Of a DNA stretch of 64,000 nucleotides, positions 8,604 to 61,653 are shown in pieces. The number at the start of each line of letters is the position of its first letter. Position 1 is the first letter of the stretch. Under the pieces are notes generated by a model. It saw only the letters and a list, made by a program, of their open reading frames with translations, ran no database searches and had not been told where the DNA came from. The translations under genes were made by a program, and so were the position numbers. The DNA is from Longimicrobiales bacterium (lineage in GTDB: Bacteria; Gemmatimonadota; Gemmatimonadetes; Longimicrobiales; Gaopeijiaceae): NCBI GenBank assembly GCA_965202985.1, contig CBDBCF010000001.1, positions 1,632,001-1,696,000 of the forward strand, in the 5' to 3' direction.

Positions 8604-10268
8604 CTAGTGGCCGGCGGCGTGTCCGTCCTTGCGCGGCTCGGAGGCGGCCGCCCAGCCACGGGCCAGCTTGGCGACCAGCTGCGCGCCGCCGAAGCTCGTC
8701 CGAGTCCAGTCGGCGATCTCGTGGCCCAGGGCCTCCAACGCCGCCGCCGCTTCGGGACCGATCCTCTCGATGGCCACGCGTCGGCCCGACAGGTGGCGGA
8801 ACCGCGGCGCGTCGACCGCTTCCTGCGGGTCCATGCCGAAGACCAGCATGTTGAGCAGGAGCTGGACATGGCCTTGGGGCTGCATCGACCCGCCCATGAC
8901 TCCGAACGCCATGTACGGCTCGCCGTCGCGGGTCGCGAACGCTGGGATGATCGTGTGGAAGGGGCGCTTCCGGGGCGCGGCCTGGTTGGGGTGCCCGTCT
9001 TCGAGAACGAACCCGGCGCCTCGGTTCTGGAGGGCGAATCCGGTGCCCGGCACCACGATCCCCGAGCCGAACGACGAGTACACCGAGTTGATGAACGACA
9101 CCATGTTGCCGTCCTGGTCGGCCACCGCCAGGTAGATCGTCTCCGAGTCCGTGACGGCTCGGCCCGGCTCCGGGCGGTCCGCCGCCGCCCCCGGATCGAT
9201 GAGCTTGCGCCGGGCGTCCACGAACGCGGGCGCCAGCAGCGCCTCGGGATCGATCTCCATCGTCTCGGGGTCGGACACGTACCGGTGCAGGTCGGCGAAC
9301 GCCAGCTTCTTGGCTTCGATCAGGTGGTGCAGGTACTCGGGCGAGTTGTGGCCCATCGCCGCCAAGTCGAACGGCTCCAGCAGCTCCAGCATTTCCAAGG
9401 CCGCGATCCCCTGCCCGGCGGGCGGCAGCTCCCACACCGTCCAGCCGCGGAACTCCGTGCCCAGCGGCTCCACCCACCGCGGTTGGTGCGCGGCCAAGTC
9501 GTCCAGCGTCAAGAACCCGCCCAGGGCGTCCAGCCCTTCCACCAGCTCCCGCCCCAGCGCGCCGCCGTACAAAACGCCGGGCCCCTCTTGGGCGATCCGC
9601 CGCAAGGAGCGGGCCAAGTCCGGGTTGGCGAACCACTCGCCGGCCCCGGGCGCCCGCGCGCCGTCCACCAAGTACGTGGTGCGCGCGCCCTCGTCGCGGG
9701 CCAACCGATCGGCCGCCGCGGCCCACTGCTCCGCGATCACGGGCGTCACCGGGAAGCCCGTCTCGGCGATGCGGATCGCGGGCGCGAGCACGTCGGCCAG
9801 GTCCAAGCGTCCGTAACGCTCCACCAAGGCGTGCCAGCCCGAAACGGCGCCGGGCACGGTCACCGTCTCCGCGCCGCCGCCGGGCATCCGTTCGTGGCCC
9901 CGTTCGCGCAACGCCCGGGCGGACAGGCCGCTCCCGCTCCGGCCGCTGGCGTCCAGGCCGACCAGCTCGCCGGTATCGGCCCACCACAGCAGGGCGAAGG
10001 CGTCTCCCCCCGCGCCGGTCATGTGCGGCTCCACCACGTTCAGGACGGCCGCCGCCGCGACCGCGGCATCGACCGCGTTCCCGCCTCGGCTCATGATTTC
10101 CAGGGCCGCCGACGTGGCCAGGGGCTGGCTGGTAGCCGCCGCGGCCCGCGGCGCATAGACGGTGGAGCGGGCCGCCATGTCGGACCGACCACTAGATTGA
10201 ACGCCGTCGGCAGTCACGGGGAACGCCGCGGCCGCGAGCAGACAGACGACAAGTCGACGAGAGAACAT
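8604..10268 (-). CDS. ggt: Gamma-glutamyltransferase, secreted
   Basis: Signal peptide; GGNAVDAAVA, VVEPHMTGAGGD, catalytic ETIYLAVAD, LQNRGAGF, RPFHTIIP, GVMGGSMQPQGH. Confidence 0.92.
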   Translation of the reverse strand: MFSRRLVVCLLAAAAFPVTADGVQSSGRSDMAARSTVYAPRAAAATSQPLATSAALEIMSRGGNAVDAAVAAAAVLNVVEPHMTGAGGDAFALLWWADTGELVGLDASGRSGSGLSARALRERGHERMPGGGAETVTVPGAVSGWHALVERYGRLDLADVLAPAIRIAETGFPVTPVIAEQWAAAADRLARDEGARTTYLVDGARAPGAGEWFANPDLARSLRRIAQEGPGVLYGGALGRELVEGLDALGGFLTLDDLAAHQPRWVEPLGTEFRGWTVWELPPAGQGIAALEMLELLEPFDLAAMGHNSPEYLHHLIEAKKLAFADLHRYVSDPETMEIDPEALLAPAFVDARRKLIDPGAAADRPEPGRAVTDSETIYLAVADQDGNMVSFINSVYSSFGSGIVVPGTGFALQNRGAGFVLEDGHPNQAAPRKRPFHTIIPAFATRDGEPYMAFGVMGGSMQPQGHVQLLLNMLVFGMDPQEAVDAPRFRHLSGRRVAIERIGPEAAAALEALGHEIADWTRTSFGGAQLVAKLARGWAAASEPRKDGHAAGH

Positions 10269-53666: not shown

Positions 53667-55775
53667 ATGTCCCATTCCCGCTGGCGGCTTCCGAGCCTTA
53701 CCGTCGCGGTTTCGGCGCTCCTGGGCTGGGGCGTCGCCGCTTGGGTGGACTTGGCGCCCCGCGTGGAGGCCGACTTCTTCTTCGCGCCGGGAGACCCGCA
53801 GCTTCGGGAGTCGCGGGAGCTGATTGCGCGCTACCCCGGCGCGGGCACGGGAGACGCCGTGATCGTGCGGGCCGCGGCTCCGGCCACGGACTCGGAGTCG
53901 TACAGGGACCGGATCGACGCCCTGGGCCGGGCGCTGGCGGAAGTTCCCGGTGTCGCGAGCGTCTATTCGATTGCCGACCAAGACCGGACGAGCCCGTTCT
54001 GGAGCCGGATATTGGCCCCTGCGCCGGCGCGGGCGACGAACGTGATCGCCGTGCTGGAGGCGGAGCGGTCGGGGGGCGGCGTTGTGGATGCGGGCCCTGG
54101 TGCGGCCCCTGGCGTGGATGCGAGCGCCTTGATTCGGCGGCTCGAAGCGGTGTTGGAGGCTCACGAGGAAGACGACTTTGTGCTGCTGGCTTCGGGGACG
54201 CCGGTGGTCGTCGAACTCATCCGCAGGGGTTTGGCGCGGGACTTGGCGGTCTTCAGCACGGCGGCGCTCCTGCTGTTCGGTCTGGTGGCGATGGTGTTGT
54301 ACCGGGATGCGCGGCTCGTGGCCGGAACGCTGCTCTCGTGTCTCTGCGCCTGCGCCGGCACGTTGCTCGCGGCCCGGGCCTTCGGAATAGGGGTCGGGCT
54401 CCTGACGGCCAACATCGTGACGATCGTCTTCGTCCTTACGCTGTCGCACACGGTGTTCATCGTGGCCAACTGGCGGCGAGGGGGCGGCGCGGCCCAGGCC
54501 CTGGCGCGGACGATCGGGCCCTCGACGTGGTGCATGGCCACGACGGCCGCCGGGTTTCTCAGCCTGTGGACCACGTCGGCGCAGCCGCTTCGGGAGCTGG
54601 GCACCGCGGGCGCCCTGGGCACGGTCGTGGCGGCGGCGTCCGCGTTCGGCGTGCTGCCGGCGTGGCTGGGCGCGGCAAGGCGGTCGGCCTCGAAGGCGCG
54701 ACTGCCGCGTTCGCCGTTCGAGTCGAGGCTGCCCTTGATCCTTGGCGTAGTTGCCGTGGGCGTCGTTGGACTTGGGGTGCTTCGGCTGGACACCGACCCG
54801 AGCTTGCTGAGCTACTTCAACGCCGACGGACCGATCCGGTCGGGCCTGGAGGTCGTCGATCGGGAAGGGGGCAGCAGTCCGCTGTTGCTGGCTGTGGGCG
54901 CCGCAGACGGAGGGCGGTTGGACACGGGCGAAGGCTACGAGCGGATGTGGCGGTTCCAGGATTCGCTGGAAGCCGACCCGGCCACGGGAACCGTTCTGTC
55001 GCCGGCCCCGCTCCTTGCGCACGCGCGGACGCTGCCCCTTGCGGGGTTCCTGCCCGTGTCGTTGCTGGTGGACTTTCTGAACCGGCCCGAGTTCGGGGCC
55101 GTGGGGCGCGGGTTCGCGAGCGAGGACAGGACCGAGGTGCTGTATGCGGTCCGCATGAAGGAGGGCGGCAGGACGGAGCCGCGGGATTCGGTGGCCGCGC
55201 GGCTGGCGGCCCACGCGGGGGCGGCGGGGCTGGCCGTGAACGCGACCGGCGGGCTGTACGAGCTGCAGGATCGGCTGGGCACGCTGATCGCCGGAAGCCT
55301 CAAGGTCGGGCTCGGCGGGCTCTTGGCGCTGTTCCTGCTGGTCGGCGCGGGCGTGGCGCGCAACGCCGCGACGGCCCTGGCCATGCTCGCGTGCCTGTTG
55401 GCGGTGCCGTTGACCGTGCTGGGAACGTTCGGCCATGCCGGCGTGGCCGTGGACATCATCACGTCGCCCGCGGCGAGCGTAGCGCTCGCGATGGGCGTGG
55501 ACTCGATGATCCACCTGACCAGCAGGGTGCGCAGAATCGACGGAGGCGCGGCGCGTATCGGCGGCTCTTGGCAAGCGGCCAGGGCCGAACTCGCGGCCCC
55601 CGTAGCCACCGCGTGCGTGGTCATCTGCGCCGGGTTCGGCGTCTTTGCGTTCTCGGACTTTCCGCCGACGCGGCGCTTCGGGCTTGCGGTGGTGCTGGGC
55701 ACGGTTGCGGCCACGACCGCCGCGCTGGGCGCCTTGCCCAGGTTGATGACGCGGCAGCGGGTGGACGCAGCGTAG
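53667..55775 (+). CDS. MMPL/RND-superfamily transporter
   Basis: Two repeats of a periplasmic loop plus TM cluster; TTAAGFLSL, MGVDSMIH, FSDFPPTRRFG. Confidence 0.85.
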   Translation: MSHSRWRLPSLTVAVSALLGWGVAAWVDLAPRVEADFFFAPGDPQLRESRELIARYPGAGTGDAVIVRAAAPATDSESYRDRIDALGRALAEVPGVASVYSIADQDRTSPFWSRILAPAPARATNVIAVLEAERSGGGVVDAGPGAAPGVDASALIRRLEAVLEAHEEDDFVLLASGTPVVVELIRRGLARDLAVFSTAALLLFGLVAMVLYRDARLVAGTLLSCLCACAGTLLAARAFGIGVGLLTANIVTIVFVLTLSHTVFIVANWRRGGGAAQALARTIGPSTWCMATTAAGFLSLWTTSAQPLRELGTAGALGTVVAAASAFGVLPAWLGAARRSASKARLPRSPFESRLPLILGVVAVGVVGLGVLRLDTDPSLLSYFNADGPIRSGLEVVDREGGSSPLLLAVGAADGGRLDTGEGYERMWRFQDSLEADPATGTVLSPAPLLAHARTLPLAGFLPVSLLVDFLNRPEFGAVGRGFASEDRTEVLYAVRMKEGGRTEPRDSVAARLAAHAGAAGLAVNATGGLYELQDRLGTLIAGSLKVGLGGLLALFLLVGAGVARNAATALAMLACLLAVPLTVLGTFGHAGVAVDIITSPAASVALAMGVDSMIHLTSRVRRIDGGAARIGGSWQAARAELAAPVATACVVICAGFGVFAFSDFPPTRRFGLAVVLGTVAATTAALGALPRLMTRQRVDAA

Positions 55776-55782
55776 GGGTGGC

Positions 55783-56481
55783 CTACCGTTCCATCGCGTC
55801 GAGCTTGGGGTCGAAGTTGTCAAACGCCGACCGCACCAGCAGGAAGCCGACGCCCAAAGCGACGCCGGCGACGACGAGCACTGCGCCGGTCGCGAGCGCG
55901 ACGAGCCGACCCGGGCCAGCCTCGAGTGCCCAGCGCGCCCAGTCTTCCGGAGTGCTGAGCACCTCGTCGGCCACCAGTGTTGCAAATATCATTACCGTCG
56001 CGAAGGTGGCTACCCGTTGCGGGCTGTACTTTGCCACGGCGCCCGTGGCCAGGCAGGCCAAGGAACCACCGACCAACCACACGGACAGTGCCGCGCCCAG
56101 CCCCCATTCGAGCCGGTCTTCCAGGCCGAGGGAAGGCGCTGCGGTCCGGCCCATGAGCACGCCGGCGACGGCGGCCATGGGCAGAATGAAGAGAAAGTTT
56201 GCCATGAACCGGGCGCCTGCGACGGTAGCGCCGCGCACCGGCAACGACGCAACAAACTCCATCGTCCCTTCCAGCTTGTCTCTCAGGGTCGCGCCGACAA
56301 CGGCGCCAGCCGGCACCGCGGTAGCAACCATCAGAAAAAAGACTACGGCTTCGGACGTGGCTTTGCCGATCGCGACGAAGACGGCCAGACCGACCACCAG
56401 CAGGCCGTAGGAACGCAAGGTCGGCGTGGTGGCCCGGCGGATTTCCAGTCGCAGAAGGCGGCTAGTCTTGGGAGGGATCAT
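55783..56481 (-). CDS. ABC-2-type transporter permease
   Basis: About 6 TM segments; DKLEGTMEFVASLPVR motif; overlaps the ATPase 3' end. Confidence 0.8.
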   Translation of the reverse strand: MIPPKTSRLLRLEIRRATTPTLRSYGLLVVGLAVFVAIGKATSEAVVFFLMVATAVPAGAVVGATLRDKLEGTMEFVASLPVRGATVAGARFMANFLFILPMAAVAGVLMGRTAAPSLGLEDRLEWGLGAALSVWLVGGSLACLATGAVAKYSPQRVATFATVMIFATLVADEVLSTPEDWARWALEAGPGRLVALATGAVLVVAGVALGVGFLLVRSAFDNFDPKLDAMER

Positions 56482-57187
56482 GGGACTCCAGCGCTTCGTA
56501 CAAGATGCGGGAAAGGGGACTGTCGGGGTCGCGCCCCTGCAGTTCCTCCACGGATGCGTCGTCGACGAGCAGACCACGGCGAATCAAGACCACGCGATCT
56601 GCGATCTGCTCAATGTCTTCCAGGATGTGGCTGGAGAATAGGACGAGTCGTTCGCCGCCGCGTGGAACACAGTCGTTGATCACCGCCAGGAGCTGTCCGC
56701 GCATCAGGGGATCGATCGCCGAAGTCGGCTCGTCCAGGATCAGCACCGGTGGACGGTGGGCTTCGGCCGCCACCAAGGACAGCTTCACGCCCATCCCCTT
56801 CGAGAGTGTGCCGACCTTGGAATCCGACGGGAGCTCCAGCCGCCGAAGAAGATCTTGCGCGTACTCGTGATCCCACGACGGAAAGAACGTAGACAGGAAA
56901 GTGAGGTGCTCGGCCACGGTCATCCAGCCAAAGCCCTGCGCCTTCTCGGGAAGGAAGCCGATCTTCTCCCGGATCTCGGGCAGCTGGGAACGCACTTCGG
57001 CGCCGCCGACCTCCACTCGGCCGTCGTACTCTCTCGAACGGCCCCCGATTGCTTTCAGCGTGGTGCTTTTCCCGGCCCCGTTCGCGCCGATCATAGCCAC
57101 GCGCTCCCCTTGCCGTATGTGCAGGTTCATCGGCTCCAGGAAGAAGTTCGGAAAACGAACGCTGAAGTCCTTCAGGCGAATGTCCAT
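56462..57187 (-). CDS. ABC transporter ATP-binding protein
   Basis: Walker A GANGAGKST, signature LSKGM, Walker B LILDEPT, H-loop FSSH. Confidence 0.92.
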   Translation of the reverse strand: MDIRLKDFSVRFPNFFLEPMNLHIRQGERVAMIGANGAGKSTTLKAIGGRSREYDGRVEVGGAEVRSQLPEIREKIGFLPEKAQGFGWMTVAEHLTFLSTFFPSWDHEYAQDLLRRLELPSDSKVGTLSKGMGVKLSLVAAEAHRPPVLILDEPTSAIDPLMRGQLLAVINDCVPRGGERLVLFSSHILEDIEQIADRVVLIRRGLLVDDASVEELQGRDPDSPLSRILYEALESHDPSQD

Positions 57188-57212
57188 GCGAGCATCCGGC
57201 GCGCGCGCCGGT

Positions 57213-57881
57213 CTAGAGGAGGAAAAGGCGGGCCATGCCCAGAGCAACGAGAATGAACCATAACAACGCGGCCAGGCCCGCCGCCGACCATCGGCCCAGA
57301 TCGACGACGCGTCGGAAGCCCATAAACAGAAAGACGAACCAGGCCGCGTGAAGCAGCGTGACGCTCTGAGCGGCGGCGGCGAGAACCGGCTGACTCGGCG
57401 TAACCAGAGCCCCCAGACCAAGGCCGGCCTGCAGATCCTGGGGAGATGCGACCGCTCCATCGCTCGTGAAGCGAAGGAGCACGGCTGTGGCTATGCCATG
57501 AGCGGCCAGGATGGCCTCCCCGTAGAGCAAGAGAGAGAAGATGCGGCGGAAGGGCCGGTCTGTGTTGGTCAGTACCAAGATCGCCCACGCCAACGCTGCG
57601 AACAAGAGCGCCTTGATTCCGTTCAGAACGGGTCCGGCCAAGGCCCCCAGCCATATCAAGACCTCTGCGAATGCGGCTTGCTCTCCGGACGTCGCAACCG
57701 CGACGAACGGGAGCAAAGCATATGCCGACGCCAGCGACAACAGCCAGGCCGCCGCGAGCGGCGCAAACACGGGCCGATGCTGCCGTATCTCGCCCATGCC
57801 CGGCACCAGAAGACTTCCGAATCTCTTGGCGCCTGCACCGAATCGCGTTGCGCCGATTGCGTTCAGGATCGTCATGTTCAC
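57213..57881 (-). CDS. Yip1-like integral membrane protein
   Basis: 222 aa, about 5 TM segments, PFRRIFSLLLYG, W..FL..GFRR...LGRW..A; AAGGAG RBS; coupled to the upstream gene. Confidence 0.7.
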   Translation of the reverse strand: MNMTILNAIGATRFGAGAKRFGSLLVPGMGEIRQHRPVFAPLAAAWLLSLASAYALLPFVAVATSGEQAAFAEVLIWLGALAGPVLNGIKALLFAALAWAILVLTNTDRPFRRIFSLLLYGEAILAAHGIATAVLLRFTSDGAVASPQDLQAGLGLGALVTPSQPVLAAAAQSVTLLHAAWFVFLFMGFRRVVDLGRWSAAGLAALLWFILVALGMARLFLL

Positions 57882-58402
57882 TCCTTGTCGTACCAGTGGA
57901 TGGTGGATTGAAGGTTGGCGACGATGGCGTGCCGGACGCTTCGGCCAACCTCTACGAATCGGACCGTGTCGCGCGCGTCCACCCAGAACGTGGTCGGAAC
58001 CGCGATCACGCCGAGCGCCTCTGCCAGCTCGCCGTCAACGTCGCGAACCGTTCTTCGGCGAAGAGACGGCGGTATCCACCGAGCCGAGTCCATGGCCGAC
58101 TTCGGTGAAGCGACAATCCATCGCTCGATCCGGGTCATCTCGGGCGTCATCGCCTCCCAGAGGTCGAGTTCAGCCTTGCAGTGCACGCACGCGCGGTCCA
58201 CGTACATGATCGCTGCCGGTCCCGCGATGCGCAAGTCGGCGCCTAGGGTCGCATTCCAAGACCAAGGCGGCTCGTTCGATCCCGCCTCCGGTGCCGATCG
58301 CCTGGCAAGAGCCGCGGGCAACAAGATCGCCGCTGCAATGCATGGAAGGATCAACCATGCCAGCAGCTTCTTCTTCCACACCGAGTGTTCTCCTGAGGTC
58401 AT
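57878..58402 (-). CDS. Membrane-anchored thioredoxin-fold (TlpA/DsbE-like) CxxC protein
   Basis: N-terminal TM segment, active site CVHC, cis-Pro motif LGVIAVPTTFWVD; start at ATG 58402 or GTG 58381. Confidence 0.8.
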   Translation of the reverse strand: MTSGEHSVWKKKLLAWLILPCIAAAILLPAALARRSAPEAGSNEPPWSWNATLGADLRIAGPAAIMYVDRACVHCKAELDLWEAMTPEMTRIERWIVASPKSAMDSARWIPPSLRRRTVRDVDGELAEALGVIAVPTTFWVDARDTVRFVEVGRSVRHAIVANLQSTIHWYDKE

Positions 58403-58508
58403 TTCGAAAGTTCCTCCTGACCAGAATGGTTCGTTCCCTGTTGGCCTGGGCGCGTCCGAAAAACGCGCCCAGGCCAACAAATGTGCGGCTATCCGACCTG
58501 ACGATGCC

Positions 58509-58766
58509 CTAGGCCCTGCAGGCTCGCTTGGCGCAGAACTCGATCGGAATCGGCAGCGACGAGGTCAACGCAAAAGCGACGCACGTGCCACACCGAACTG
58601 CTCTCCAGAACGACGACCCTCGGCCAACCACTTCCTCTTGGTGACCCGTGCCGATGCTCGCGGCGGCCGGGTGGTTTCCAGAAGAAACCTCGGGCCTGGG
58701 CGCTGCGACGAGGATCGAGACAGCCAGAGTGGCCACGATTGCCTTGCGAGAGACAAGACGCTTCAT
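58509..58766 (-). CDS. Putative secreted Cys-stapled precursor peptide 3 (85 aa)
   Basis: GAAAGGAG RBS; MKRLVSRKAIVATLAVSILVAA...QEEVVGRG-SSFWRAVRCGTCVAFALTSSLPIPIEFCAKRACRA; appears only as the 3' part of track ORF 58509..59375. Confidence 0.8.
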   Translation of the reverse strand: MKRLVSRKAIVATLAVSILVAAPRPEVSSGNHPAAASIGTGHQEEVVGRGSSFWRAVRCGTCVAFALTSSLPIPIEFCAKRACRA

Positions 58767-58801
58767 GTTTTGCTCCTTTCGATTGGTGAAGTGCGACGGA
58801 A

Positions 58802-59095
58802 CTAGCCGTACGCGCGATAGCAGGCTATGCCGCAAAAAATGATGGCTTCGGGAGCGAAGAATGCGAGCATCGCCAATCCGAAGACGCTCCCGCCTCCTGC
58901 AAACAAGACGGCTGTCAGGCACGCTACGCAGACAAACTTGTCGGGACCGAAGCCAACCGGGTCCTCGACGTCCTGTTCGACCCGAGGTACGTCGTCCGCC
59001 GCGGATGCAACGGAGCGATCTCCGAAAGACGCAGCGTGCGCGACGGCCAAGATGCCCAGGAGAGCCGTCGTCTTGCGCATTATGTTCGAAGTCAT
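58802..59095 (-). CDS. Putative secreted Cys-stapled precursor peptide 2 (97 aa)
   Basis: GAAAGGAG RBS; MRKTTALLGILAVAHAA...VEDPVGFG-PDKFVCVACLTAVLFAGGGSVFGLAMLAFFAPEAIIFCGIACYRAYG. Confidence 0.82.
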   Translation of the reverse strand: MTSNIMRKTTALLGILAVAHAASFGDRSVASAADDVPRVEQDVEDPVGFGPDKFVCVACLTAVLFAGGGSVFGLAMLAFFAPEAIIFCGIACYRAYG

Positions 59096-59110
59096 TTCTC
59101 TCTCCTTTCC

Positions 59111-59392
59111 TTATGAAAACGCGTCGACACAGGCTGCGATGCAGCCCGCAGCAACCATGGTAGAGCCCGGGCGAGCACTGGCAACCAAGATGGCGCCCCA
59201 GCCACCCCAAACAACGGCCGCGGCGCCAACCGCGCAGGCCGCGCATCCCAGGGCGCTCCAGATTCCCGCGCCCGTGAAGTCTTCTGCGGCAATGTCGGAG
59301 GGGCTTCGAGTCTCGAACGTGGAGCCGATCTCGGTGCTTCCAGCGGTCAGCAGGGCGCACAGAACGAAGGTCCAAAGACGTGATTTCTTCAT
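59111..59392 (-). CDS. Putative secreted Cys-stapled precursor peptide 1 (93 aa)
   Basis: AAAAGGAG RBS; MKKSRLWTFVLCALLTAG...AEDFTGAG-IWSALGCAACAVGAAAVVWGGWGAILVASARPGSTMVAAGCIAACVDAFS. Confidence 0.82.
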   Translation of the reverse strand: MKKSRLWTFVLCALLTAGSTEIGSTFETRSPSDIAAEDFTGAGIWSALGCAACAVGAAAVVWGGWGAILVASARPGSTMVAAGCIAACVDAFS

Positions 59393-59438
59393 GTTTCTCT
59401 CCTTTTGTTGTCGAGTTGCGTGTTCACCAAGTTGGCGA

Positions 59439-59528
59439 TCACGAAAGCCTGGTAAGGGCCGTACGAACCAACAGGTACGCTTTGGAGATCAGAAGCACTT
59501 GCGTAAGGACTGCCATGGAGATGTACAT
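59439..59528 (-). CDS. Candidate 29-aa hydrophobic small ORF
   Basis: GAAAGGA RBS 7 nt before the ATG; MYISMAVLTQVLLISKAYLLVRTALTRLS; below the ORF-track size cut-off. Confidence 0.4.
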   Translation of the reverse strand: MYISMAVLTQVLLISKAYLLVRTALTRLS

Positions 59529-59656
59529 TGCGCTTTCCTTTCATTTGAGGCGCTGAATCGGAGCGCGTCCAGGCGCTCCAGTTGGCGACGCCGGCGATTC
59601 CGGCGACCGCGGGGGGCCGAGGCCCGGTTTCGATCTTCCTGCCAAGTTTCTTCGCG

Positions 59657-60298
59657 TCAGTCCATGGGCTTCCTCCTTTCCAGGGAGCGGGGTTCCGCGA
59701 CGGCTGGCGCAGCGGACGATCCGGTGCTTTCGCGGAGGACGACGGCCTCGCCCGACCAGATCTTGCTGAATGCGGTGTCGCCGATCGTGTAACGACCCAC
59801 TTGGGGGTCCAGCACGGTTACCCGACCATCGGGCGTCCACTCCGTGACTGTCACGAAGTGGCTCCTGCGGACCCAGGCGATGAAGGGCTTCGGAGTCTCC
59901 GCTATGCCGCCGCGTCGTAGGCGGTTCAGGGTGAGAGAGAGACCGAAGACCTCGGCTGCCCGGATCAACCCGCGGGCCCTCGTGCCCGTCGGTCCCGTGC
60001 CTGCCAGCGCGCCGAGCGAATCCGTGGCCGGCGTGTCCAAGCCCAGCACCTGGAACATGTTGGCGAGAGCGGCAGGACCGCAGTCGCTCAGCGTGGATTG
60101 CAGCACCATGCCTTCGCGTCCTTGGTAGGAGCCCCCGTCGGCTGCTACTTGAATCCGCGCCGCCCACCTGCCCAGGCGGGCAGGGTCCACTGCCAGAAGA
60201 GCTGTGGCAGCGACCGTGAGGACCAACCCCAGAAGGGTCGAGGCGGCGAGAGTCCGGCGGCGGGCCGAACGCGGGGTCTGCGGCTTGGGAGCGGGCAT
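59657..60298 (-). CDS. Stand-alone C39-family cysteine peptidase with an N-terminal membrane anchor or signal
   Basis: LQSTLSDCGPAALA (oxyanion Gln and catalytic Cys), HFVTV (His), VLDPQVG (Asp), FSKIWSG; no ABC domains; alternative GTG start at 60325. Confidence 0.88.
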   Translation of the reverse strand: MPAPKPQTPRSARRRTLAASTLLGLVLTVAATALLAVDPARLGRWAARIQVAADGGSYQGREGMVLQSTLSDCGPAALANMFQVLGLDTPATDSLGALAGTGPTGTRARGLIRAAEVFGLSLTLNRLRRGGIAETPKPFIAWVRRSHFVTVTEWTPDGRVTVLDPQVGRYTIGDTAFSKIWSGEAVVLRESTGSSAAPAVAEPRSLERRKPMD

Positions 60299-60504
60299 CC
60301 GGTGTCGGGTTGCGGGTCGTTCCACGATCGAACGAAGGAACGATGCACCCGGGAATTGGGCGCTTCCATGCTCAGATCGGCCCGACTTTTTTCGCCCCGC
60401 AAAAAGGGCCGAAAATCGGCGCTCCGGAGTCCCGAAAACGGGGGCTCACCCCCCGAGTGCACCCCCATCGGGGCACTTCGCACCCCCGCTGCCCCCCCGT
60501 CGTG

Positions 60505-60712: not shown

Positions 60713-61378
60713 CTAGAGCGCCTCCAGCGCGGCGAGGATGTCGGCGTTGGTGGGGCGAACCCGGTAGTCTTCCTCCACGAACCCCCAGCGCACGATCCCC
60801 TCCTGGTCGATCACGTAGGTGGCCGGGTGGGGTACGGGGCGGTTCGGGGGCGCGTCCGGGTTCAACAGGCCGTAGCGGTCGATCACCCGGTGGTCGGGGT
60901 CGGACAGCATGACGAAGTCAGGGGCCTCGCCTCCGTCGGCGACGATGCGGTCGATCATCAGCTGCTGCTTCTCGCGGTCGTCCACGGAGACGGCGACGAT
61001 CACGGTCTGGGCGGCGATCGCCGGGGGCAGCAGGTCTCTCAGCTCGCCGAGCTGACGGGCGCAGTGCGGTCACCAGTGTCCACGGTAGAAGACGAGGACC
61101 ACGTTCGCTGTGCCGCGGAAACCTGCCAGCTCCACGGTCTCGCCCCCGAAAGACTCCAGGGCGAAGAGCGGAGCCTCCGTGCCGGCCGACACCCGCTCCA
61201 AGTCCGTCGCGGGAAGGTCGTGGCCGTCGGTCGGCCCCAGGCTGGAGACTTGGGCCGAAGCCGTGCCGAAGCCGGGGAGTGCCCCGAGCACCGCGGCCAG
61301 GACGAGAGCGCGGGCGCCGTCTCGAAGGAGGCGCCGTGCGCGGAGGCGGGAGGTACTGAAGCAACGGGTCGAGGTCAT
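60713..61378 (-). CDS. AhpC/TSA peroxiredoxin-like selenoprotein (UxxC; UGA at 61070-61072)
   Basis: Track ORFs 61070..61450 and 60713..61003 share a frame. Readthrough gives APLFAL...VVLVFYRGHW-U-PHCARQLGEL...IVAVSVD...LSDPD..VIDRYG...PATYVIDQEGIVRW. Signal-like N-terminus. Confidence 0.9.
61040..61054 (-). promoter_or_regulatory. Candidate SECIS hairpin of the peroxiredoxin-like gene
   Basis: CAGCTC-GGC-GAGCTG, a perfect stem with a G-initiated loop, starting 15 nt after the UGA. Confidence 0.6.
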
Positions 61379-61653
61379 GGTCCGGGGCTGTCGTGGTGGC
61401 GGGGGGTCAGGCCCGTGCGGGGACGCTCGCGTTCGCGGGGCGCTCTCCAAGTCCGGGCGCTCCCCTCAATTATATGGTCAAGCCGCGATCGGTGGGACGA
61501 ACCGGCTGTGGTCCGTCGGGCCGCGTGCCGCGGCTCTTCATCGGTCCGGAAGTCGTCCCGCGCAAACGAGTAGGCCGGCCGGGACGGACCGGAAGCGCGC
61601 CGCCGAATGCGCGCCTCCAGCCCGTCCATCGGCCGACCGCCTGCTGGCGGCTC

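Follow-up and report, generated by a model that had tools for sequence, protein, structure and literature searches.

What is made by three small genes that lie in tandem beside a peptidase gene in a Longimicrobiales bacterium, and what might their products do? The window (the whole stretch of 64,000 nucleotides that was analysed) had first been read from its letters alone, and that sequence-only reading linked the three peptides to C39 peptidases. The link holds, since a stand-alone C39 peptidase gene is found on the same strand, upstream of all three. From this gene the cassette runs through the precursors, a hairpin, a CxxC thioredoxin-like gene and a Yip1/YknW-like gene to an ABC-2 transporter. 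The features, in that order, are as follows.

59657-60325, minus strand: stand-alone C39 cysteine peptidase (PF03412, E 5e-21) with an N-terminal basic and hydrophobic anchor
59111-59392, minus strand: precursor P1, 93 residues, family A; signal-like residues 1 to about 20, spacer, FTGA/G, core 43-93 with CxxC-x30-CxxxC
58802-59095, minus strand: precursor P2, 97 residues, family B; signal-like N-terminus, spacer, PVGF/G, core 50-97 with CxxC-x28-CxxxC
58509-58766, minus strand: precursor P3, 85 residues, a lineage-specific extra; signal-like N-terminus, spacer, VVGR/G, core with CxxC-x15-Cx4C
58437-58481, minus strand: RNA hairpin of 21 bp without a U-run, after the last precursor (z -4.9)
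57878-58402, minus strand: membrane-anchored thioredoxin-fold protein (CVHC), a label below curated cut-offs (weak matches to DsbE, E 2e-4, and AhpC-TSA, E 4e-3)
57213-57881, minus strand: Yip1/YknW-like membrane protein (NF052650 YknW, E 6.5e-8; PF04893, E 5.6e-5; both below curated cut-offs)
56462-57187, minus strand: ABC transporter ATPase, DrrA/PmtA-like (PF00005, E 2e-27; best NCBIfam match PmtA, E 2e-39, below cut-off)
55783-56481, minus strand: ABC-2 type permease (PF12698, E 9e-6, and PF13346; two of three relatives exceed the PF13346 cut-off)

The three-part design originally described, a basic and hydrophobic N-terminus, a polar spacer that ends in a Gly-containing motif and a four-Cys core, is present in P1, P2 and P3 alike. 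Each gene is preceded by a purine-rich stretch resembling a ribosome-binding site (RBS), GC3 is about 0.70, and P2 has a second possible ATG at 59080. The predicted cut falls after A42 in P1 and after F49 in P2. Of the Cys pattern, the spacings of 30, 28 and 15 residues between the pairs were given correctly, but the second pair of P3 (C78, C83) is Cx4C instead of CxxxC, and P1 has a fifth Cys, C12, within the signal. The Cx4C spacing occurs in 1 of 110 four-Cys cores. The P3 core is cationic, with a charge of +4.

The peptides had also been called three paralogues. This is borne out for P1 and P2, which belong to homologous families and are recovered among 49,711 genome ORFs by profiles built with the window left out (E 2.7e-14 and 2.5e-14). 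P3 is a different matter. Against the corresponding profiles (A, B and the other extras) its match was not significant, with E values of 0.6 and 1.2 among the same ORFs, so that its kinship rests on position and architecture. P3 has one relative cluster, 92% identical, in which the motif and Cx4C are retained.

A hydrophobic 29-codon ORF with an RBS-like stretch (59439-59528, minus strand) lies between C39 and P1 and is not conserved. Two other loci, L040 and L044, hold two extra precursors at this position, and the gap may therefore be a remnant.

The wider occurrence of the peptides was followed in 46 loci (L038-L082 and L113, two of them derived from a single split genome; the short L092 was omitted). 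When the cores are clustered, two large families appear together with many small ones; P1 falls in A and P2 in B. Family A is followed by family B in 42 of the 46 loci, an order that is independent of the search even though detection is not, the A and B profiles having been made from these same loci. Three of the four exceptions are contig ends, and in the fourth a B-like peptide scores below the threshold. The two families are homologous (HHalign probability 95.5%) and share 32% identity within a locus. P1 and P2 are thus members of two conserved, co-occurring families and not free variants. Between two and six precursors lie between C39 and the thioredoxin gene of a locus, and exactly two are found downstream of C39 in 22 of 44 loci. 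The extras, zero to four unrelated peptides per locus, are the variable part: diversity arises by their gain and loss, in number and in kind.

Several loci show individual features. In seven (L058, L060, L067, L068, L080, L132 and L133) C39 is preceded by one further precursor built to the same design. In L053 (8855-11350) the family A gene is broken by about 2.5 kb containing a transposase-like ORF, with a direct repeat, ATCCATAT, at both ends. The family A gene of L056 (8475-8764) is seemingly split from its own signal and pro-region, and downstream of B in that locus, at 9231 and 9577, come two short ORFs that are rich in Cys and have a signal but not the Gly motif. Many extras of clusters 2, 3, 5, 10, 13, 16 and 19 would start with Gln after GG or GA and could cyclise to pyroglutamate; several in these clusters have a single Cys pair.

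The rest of the cassette is ordered as well. In all 37 Gemmatimonadota loci with at least 5.5 kb of downstream sequence, the thioredoxin, Yip1 and ABC ATPase-permease genes follow one another in the same order. The whole stretch from 55700 to 60383 is matched by an identical public contig with zero differences, whose run may be the assembly's own source. The cassette is an accessory trait. Of 301 genomes from the class, 19 have C39, and family B occurs as one copy each in 20 of 401 genomes of the phylum. Three cassette-free relatives were examined. In two of them AhpC and M28, the genes on either side of the cassette site, adjoin directly, which indicates that the cassette is gained or lost as a whole; other DNA separates these genes in the third. 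The closest C39 loci in the species collection are all of the Gemmatimonadota group, and no plasmid match for C39 was found. Distantly related C39 loci from other groups (L083-L116 without L113; L139-L196 without L144) gave zero A or B profile matches, and many are fused PCATs.

The neighbourhood has features of its own. In the third cassette-free relative (L202, 1800-6500) the DNA between AhpC and M28, about 4.8 kb long, includes a different ABC ATPase (31% identity), which suggests that the interval is a hotspot for accessory modules. In the AhpC/TSA-type gene that flanks the cassette site (60713-61450, minus strand) the first redox position is an in-frame TGA (RGHW*PHC). The gene likely encodes a selenoprotein, because the TGA is kept in 21 of 21 relatives and the genome has tRNA-Sec and SelA. 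On the other side an MMPL/RND-family gene (53667-55775, plus strand) converges on the cassette. It adjoins the cassette only in L040, L044, L056 and L077 and is for that reason not counted as a core part.

Whether the signal and motif are real features of the family was examined in a non-circular way, with profiles made from the cores alone. These found 109 distinct peptides, whose upstream parts were then scored. A [VIL]xGx[GQ] motif within 20 residues upstream of the first Cys was present in 96 of the 109, compared with 181 of 5000 random windows (3.6%). A basic and hydrophobic segment lies upstream in 90 of 102, compared with 315 of 5000 controls (6.3%), as judged by hand-made hydropathy and charge rules that stood in for SignalP in all signal and topology calls. 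The motif first proposed, E(D/E)xxGxG, is only partly right. Its Gly is kept, but E(D/E) is not conserved, and the true motif is [VIL]-x-G-x-[GQ]. At position P5, for example, 31 of 103 motifs have D and 28 have A. The expectation that homologues keep the motif Gly and all four Cys proved correct, these being invariant in a 66-row alignment whose rows were chosen as precursors.

The motif resembles the site at which double-glycine leaders are cut. The reported C39 register has a hydrophobic residue at -4 and G at -2, which the V, L or I and the G of the motif match, and PCAT leaders are also hydrophobic at -7 and -12 (PMC10885120). Gly at -2 with a hydrophobic residue at -4 is present in 96 of the 109 core-found peptides. 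The hydrophobic -7/-12 pattern is absent from them, with a mixture at -7 (V 20, A 19, L 15, P 13, T 13) and mostly A, P or S at -12. The invariant Gly is followed by a free position, which is A in 29 of 103 motifs, R in 20, G in 13, S in 12, Q in 10 and T in 8, so that the G, A or S preferred by PCAT leaders accounts for just 54. One C39 has been described to cut after Gly-Lys, which means that the P1 position can relax (PMC12457901). Because positions -4 (hydrophobic) and -2 (Gly) agree with the C39 register and cutting after Gly-Lys has a precedent, the cut is placed at G-x/[GQ]; the first residue after it would be G in 88 cases and Q in 13. Given the 54 of 103, it may also lie one residue later. 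Cleavage at VxGx/[GQ] by the neighbouring C39 is the likely event predicted from these patterns.

The peptidase itself appears intact. Residues Q76, C82, H156 and D173 align with those of PCAT1 and are invariant in 38 of 38 rows. The gene (open frame of 262 aa) is the sole PF03412 match in the genome and is not fused to an ABC transporter. By the hydropathy rule a TM-like segment is found in 34 of 37 homologues, and K and R are more frequent before than after this segment in 27 of 37, the other 10 lacking the N-in charge bias. The thioredoxin-fold protein is similar: its CxxC is present in 51 of 52 ORF matches (the one miss is an overlapping frame), 50 of 51 have a TM-like segment, and more basic residues precede it in 36, with 15 of 51 lacking the bias. 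The N-terminal hydrophobic segment with K and R concentrated before it favours a location of both domains outside the cytoplasm, with an N-in anchor predicted for the C39 catalytic domain. The thioredoxin-fold protein is, judging by its CxxC and fold match, likely a thiol-disulfide oxidoreductase.

The hairpin after the last precursor is not peculiar to the window. A helix of at least 12 bp occurs at this place in 23 of 43 loci, compared with 4 of 430 control windows. Its likely effect is to stabilise or attenuate the mRNA, with the result that more precursor is made than downstream protein. The Yip1 label is below curated cut-offs, and four relatives had no Pfam match at 0.05. Circular and leaderless bacteriocin clusters are reported to contain Yip1 together with ABC genes (PMC8659200, PMC11580447), and YknW is described as part of the YknWXYZ pump that protects against SDP (PMC4887032).

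The cores, which are the predicted mature peptides, are 46-56 residues long with a GRAVY of about 1.35 and a net charge between -3 and +3, and the core middle has 2% charged residues. Each of 41 A rows and 40 B rows retains all four Cys. Among 136 cores (three ORFs judged not to be precursors were left out, as were 8 of 144 without a motif call, mostly with truncated starts) 109 are of the CxxC/CxxxC class and 26 have two Cys only. The latter mostly have one N-to-C pair 17-21 residues apart, and a few are truncated or mis-called. Small-xxx-small pairs number 10.7 per core in A and 6.2 in B, an uncontrolled count of a kind expected in Gly/Ala-rich sequence.

AF2 models of both cores are helical. 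That of P1 (pLDDT 83.7) has helices at 2-21, 23-31 and 35-50, that of P2 (pLDDT 89.3) at 2-17, 22-31 and 33-47; the CxxC is in the first helix of each and the CxxxC in the last. This agrees with the helical part of the earlier suggestion, antiparallel helices cross-linked by two disulfides or a metal site. Of the two kinds of cross-link disulfides are favoured, because each of the 37 complete loci has a CxxC thioredoxin-like gene and the peptides seem to be exported. It is likely that two disulfides staple the peptides. Fold searches with the core models returned generic helical proteins only, the best with Z 5.5 (rmsd 2.2, 51 aligned) and 5.3 (rmsd 2.0, 47 aligned), and Foldseek gave zero matches at E 0.001 for both. 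Three-helix models with Z values up to 5.5 do not establish a novel fold, nor do they set the cores apart from peptides with the saposin-like fold of circular bacteriocins.

Diversifying selection on the hydrophobic middle, also proposed at first, finds no support in the substitution rates. The middle has dN/dS of 0.41 in A (8 pairs), 0.30 in B (7 pairs) and 0.49 in extras (11 pairs), which is purifying at the level of the region; only pairs of at least 60% identity were used, and the ratios are biased down as a result. The Cys-bearing ends are lower still (0.18-0.29), and every region is below 1 between close pairs.

Taken together, these observations are best accommodated by a scheme that is judged somewhat better than an even bet. 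Sec would export the precursors by means of the N-terminal signal, and the polar pro-segment would keep the very hydrophobic core soluble and inactive. The anchored CxxC thioredoxin would then make nested disulfides, from the N-terminal CxxC to the C-terminal CxxxC, to give a helical hairpin or small bundle. C39 would remove the pro-segment at VxGx/[GQ] and leave an N-terminal Gly or Gln. Yip1 and ABC-2 would pull the mature peptide from the producer's inner membrane, for release as well as self-protection. A and B would act jointly on target membranes as an antimicrobial pair, and optional extras such as P3 would add strain-specific activities. Export and maturation are more secure than the antimicrobial role. 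Several points speak against the scheme. Most bacteriocins are cationic, while these cores are near neutral. Neither an outer-membrane exit protein (pore, usher or secretin) nor a small dedicated immunity gene was found among the conserved neighbours of the cassette. Purifying selection on A and B and their conservation over several families would also fit a structural role, and gene A is interrupted in one genome, L053. The charge bias missing from some C39s and thioredoxins speaks against the topology that the scheme requires.

A structural role is the strongest alternative, although an unlikely one. Export and maturation would be the same, A and B would build a filament or coat on the surface, or an assembly in the membrane, as its major and minor subunits, and, with the same low likelihood, Yip1 and the ABC transporter would draw these subunits out of the membrane so that they can assemble. 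Extracytoplasmic C39 peptidases have precedents in fibre biogenesis, namely Pseudomonas Fap, where FapD is the peptidase (PMC5557850), and, by name only, Acinetobacter Fil; the cassette C39 has a weak match to FilB (E 0.006). The fixed A-B order, the purifying selection, the neutral and very hydrophobic cores and a hairpin that fits a high precursor-to-enzyme ratio all suit subunits. The missing pore, usher or secretin counts against this role as well. Zero to four unrelated extras per locus and loss of the whole cassette are typical of peptide-weapon clusters, and the pairing of Yip1 with ABC genes is one reported for bacteriocin clusters (PMC8659200, PMC11580447, PMC4887032).

It is improbable that the cassette is a PCAT split into its parts, with the N-terminal segments as cytoplasmic-side tethers, C39 cutting in the cytoplasm and ABC-2/Yip1 exporting the product. 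The ABC exporter is always present and the topology bias of C39 is incomplete (27 of 37), as such an arrangement would allow. However, the N-termini are classic basic-hydrophobic segments in 90 of 102 peptides, the -7/-12 leader pattern is missing, and the transporter is of the ABC-2 and not the PCAT type. A slightly smaller chance still is given to the mature peptides being signals or host-interaction molecules and not antimicrobials. C39-matured peptides do include pheromones such as ComC (PMC10885120), and lineage-specific extras could encode identity. Against this, no sensor kinase or regulator is listed among the conserved neighbours, and cores of about 50 residues with a GRAVY of 1.35 would probably make poor diffusible signals. 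Least probable of all is that the four Cys bind Zn, Cu or Fe-S, with the thioredoxin keeping them reduced and the peptides serving as metal carriers or sensors: CxxC plus CxxxC could make a four-thiol site and thioredoxin-fold proteins can be reductases, but the predicted location is oxidising, and the single N-to-C pair of most two-Cys cores fits a disulfide staple better than a site made of four Cys.

The antimicrobial-pair scheme can be carried one step further, as a tentative proposal that may well be wrong. The cassette might represent a new class of ribosomal peptides in which double-glycine-type maturation is uncoupled from transport. Sec would deliver pro-peptides to a periplasmic, anchored C39 with a relaxed P1 position (G-x/[GQ]) and to a dedicated thioredoxin, and the obligate A/B pair of disulfide-stapled hydrophobic hairpins would form a scaffold (a pore or a filament) into which lineage-specific extras plug.

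None of the Pfam, NCBIfam or PDB families suits these peptides. Pfam, NCBIfam and PADLOC scans of P1 to P3 gave nothing beyond one chance match, and in family scans of the 66 aligned precursors no family was matched by more than one member. The best E value in a PDB sequence search with the peptides was 0.48, and all ESM Atlas scores were at or below 0.81. A profile search of 1.84 billion representatives (50% clustering) gave at least 317 matches at E ≤0.001. Among the 149 matches listed besides P1, 116 are less than 60% identical to the locus set, and 91 of these fit the strict motif-plus-Cys pattern. The cassette is not described in the literature searched, mainly listings and the opening parts of abstracts. 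A survey of marine Gemmatimonadota reports lasso peptides, Nif11-type bacteriocins and microcins; its main text is without C39, and its supplements might list such clusters (PMC11316326).

The cassette has several implications. It provides a concrete, testable set of substrates for the little-characterised extracytoplasmic stand-alone C39 peptidases, and it suggests that a leader peptidase can accept an unusually wide range of residues at the P1 position. It also exposes, in a mostly uncultured phylum, a sizeable peptide family that Pfam and NCBIfam leave unlabelled. The cores can be synthesised and tested directly, since they have about 50 residues and no predicted modification except disulfides.

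Among known systems, the cassette would work like an unmodified disulfide bacteriocin system and lacks what defines PCAT systems, glycocins and circular bacteriocins. The catalytic Cys-His-Asp of PCATs is present, but C39 is not fused to ABC transmembrane or ATPase domains and the precursors have no leader helix. Glycocins (sublancin, glycocin F, orniglycocin) share with the cassette C39 and thioredoxin-like genes, a helical core that has a Cys pair at either end, and a Gly-x/Gly cut site (GK in OrgA; PMC12457901). Their nested disulfides are formed with thioredoxin-like partners, and a thioredoxin gene is present in the cassette. The cassette differs in its CxxC/CxxxC spacing, its longer hydrophobic core, its obligatory pair and the absence of a PCAT, and no glycosyltransferase was found in the window operon or among the conserved neighbours. 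Circular bacteriocins (the circularin A/uberolysin and gassericin A groups) also have hydrophobic helical cores and Yip1 plus ABC accessory genes, and weak ESM Atlas feature scores of 0.76-0.78 connect them with the cassette peptides as leads only. A SpoIIM/DUF95 protein is described as a feature of their clusters (PMC8659200 / PMC11580447). None is in the cassette, and the genome's two PF01944 matches are about 100 kb and 1.2 Mb away. Head-to-tail cyclisation of the cassette peptides was considered and is thought unlikely, with no SpoIIM at hand and ragged C-termini; their ends are apparently tied by Cys pairs instead.

FapD of the Pseudomonas functional amyloid system is, like the cassette C39, a stand-alone enzyme working outside the cytoplasm, in the periplasm, on Sec-exported substrates (PMC5557850). 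FapD has a Sec signal and its target is left unclear in that account, whereas the cassette C39 has an N-terminal sequence predicted to anchor it in the membrane, and its likely substrates adjoin it with a common motif. Neither a FapF-like pore nor amyloid repeats were found in the cassette.

SdpC of Bacillus, the precursor of the SDP toxin, has a Sec signal and a pro-region. The toxin resembles the cassette peptides in being hydrophobic and disulfide-bonded (42 residues), and the Yip1-family protein YknW with an ABC transporter protects against it (PMC4887032). SDP differs in that it is a single peptide with one disulfide, with a MacB-type pump that includes a membrane-fusion protein, and no C39.

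Class IIb bacteriocins are typically exported by a peptidase-containing ABC transporter, an arrangement that the genome's sole, free-standing PF03412 match does not offer. The cassette precursors further differ from them in their signal-like N-termini, their near-neutral cores with four invariant Cys and their host, a member of a Gram-negative phylum. Lactococcin G and plantaricin EF/JK likewise consist of two adjacent, different, helical and hydrophobic peptides with a double-glycine-like release site. Their helices have Gly/Ala-xxx-Gly/Ala motifs, and the activity of such two-peptide bacteriocins is reported to need both peptides at about 1:1, acting in synergy (PMC8538875).
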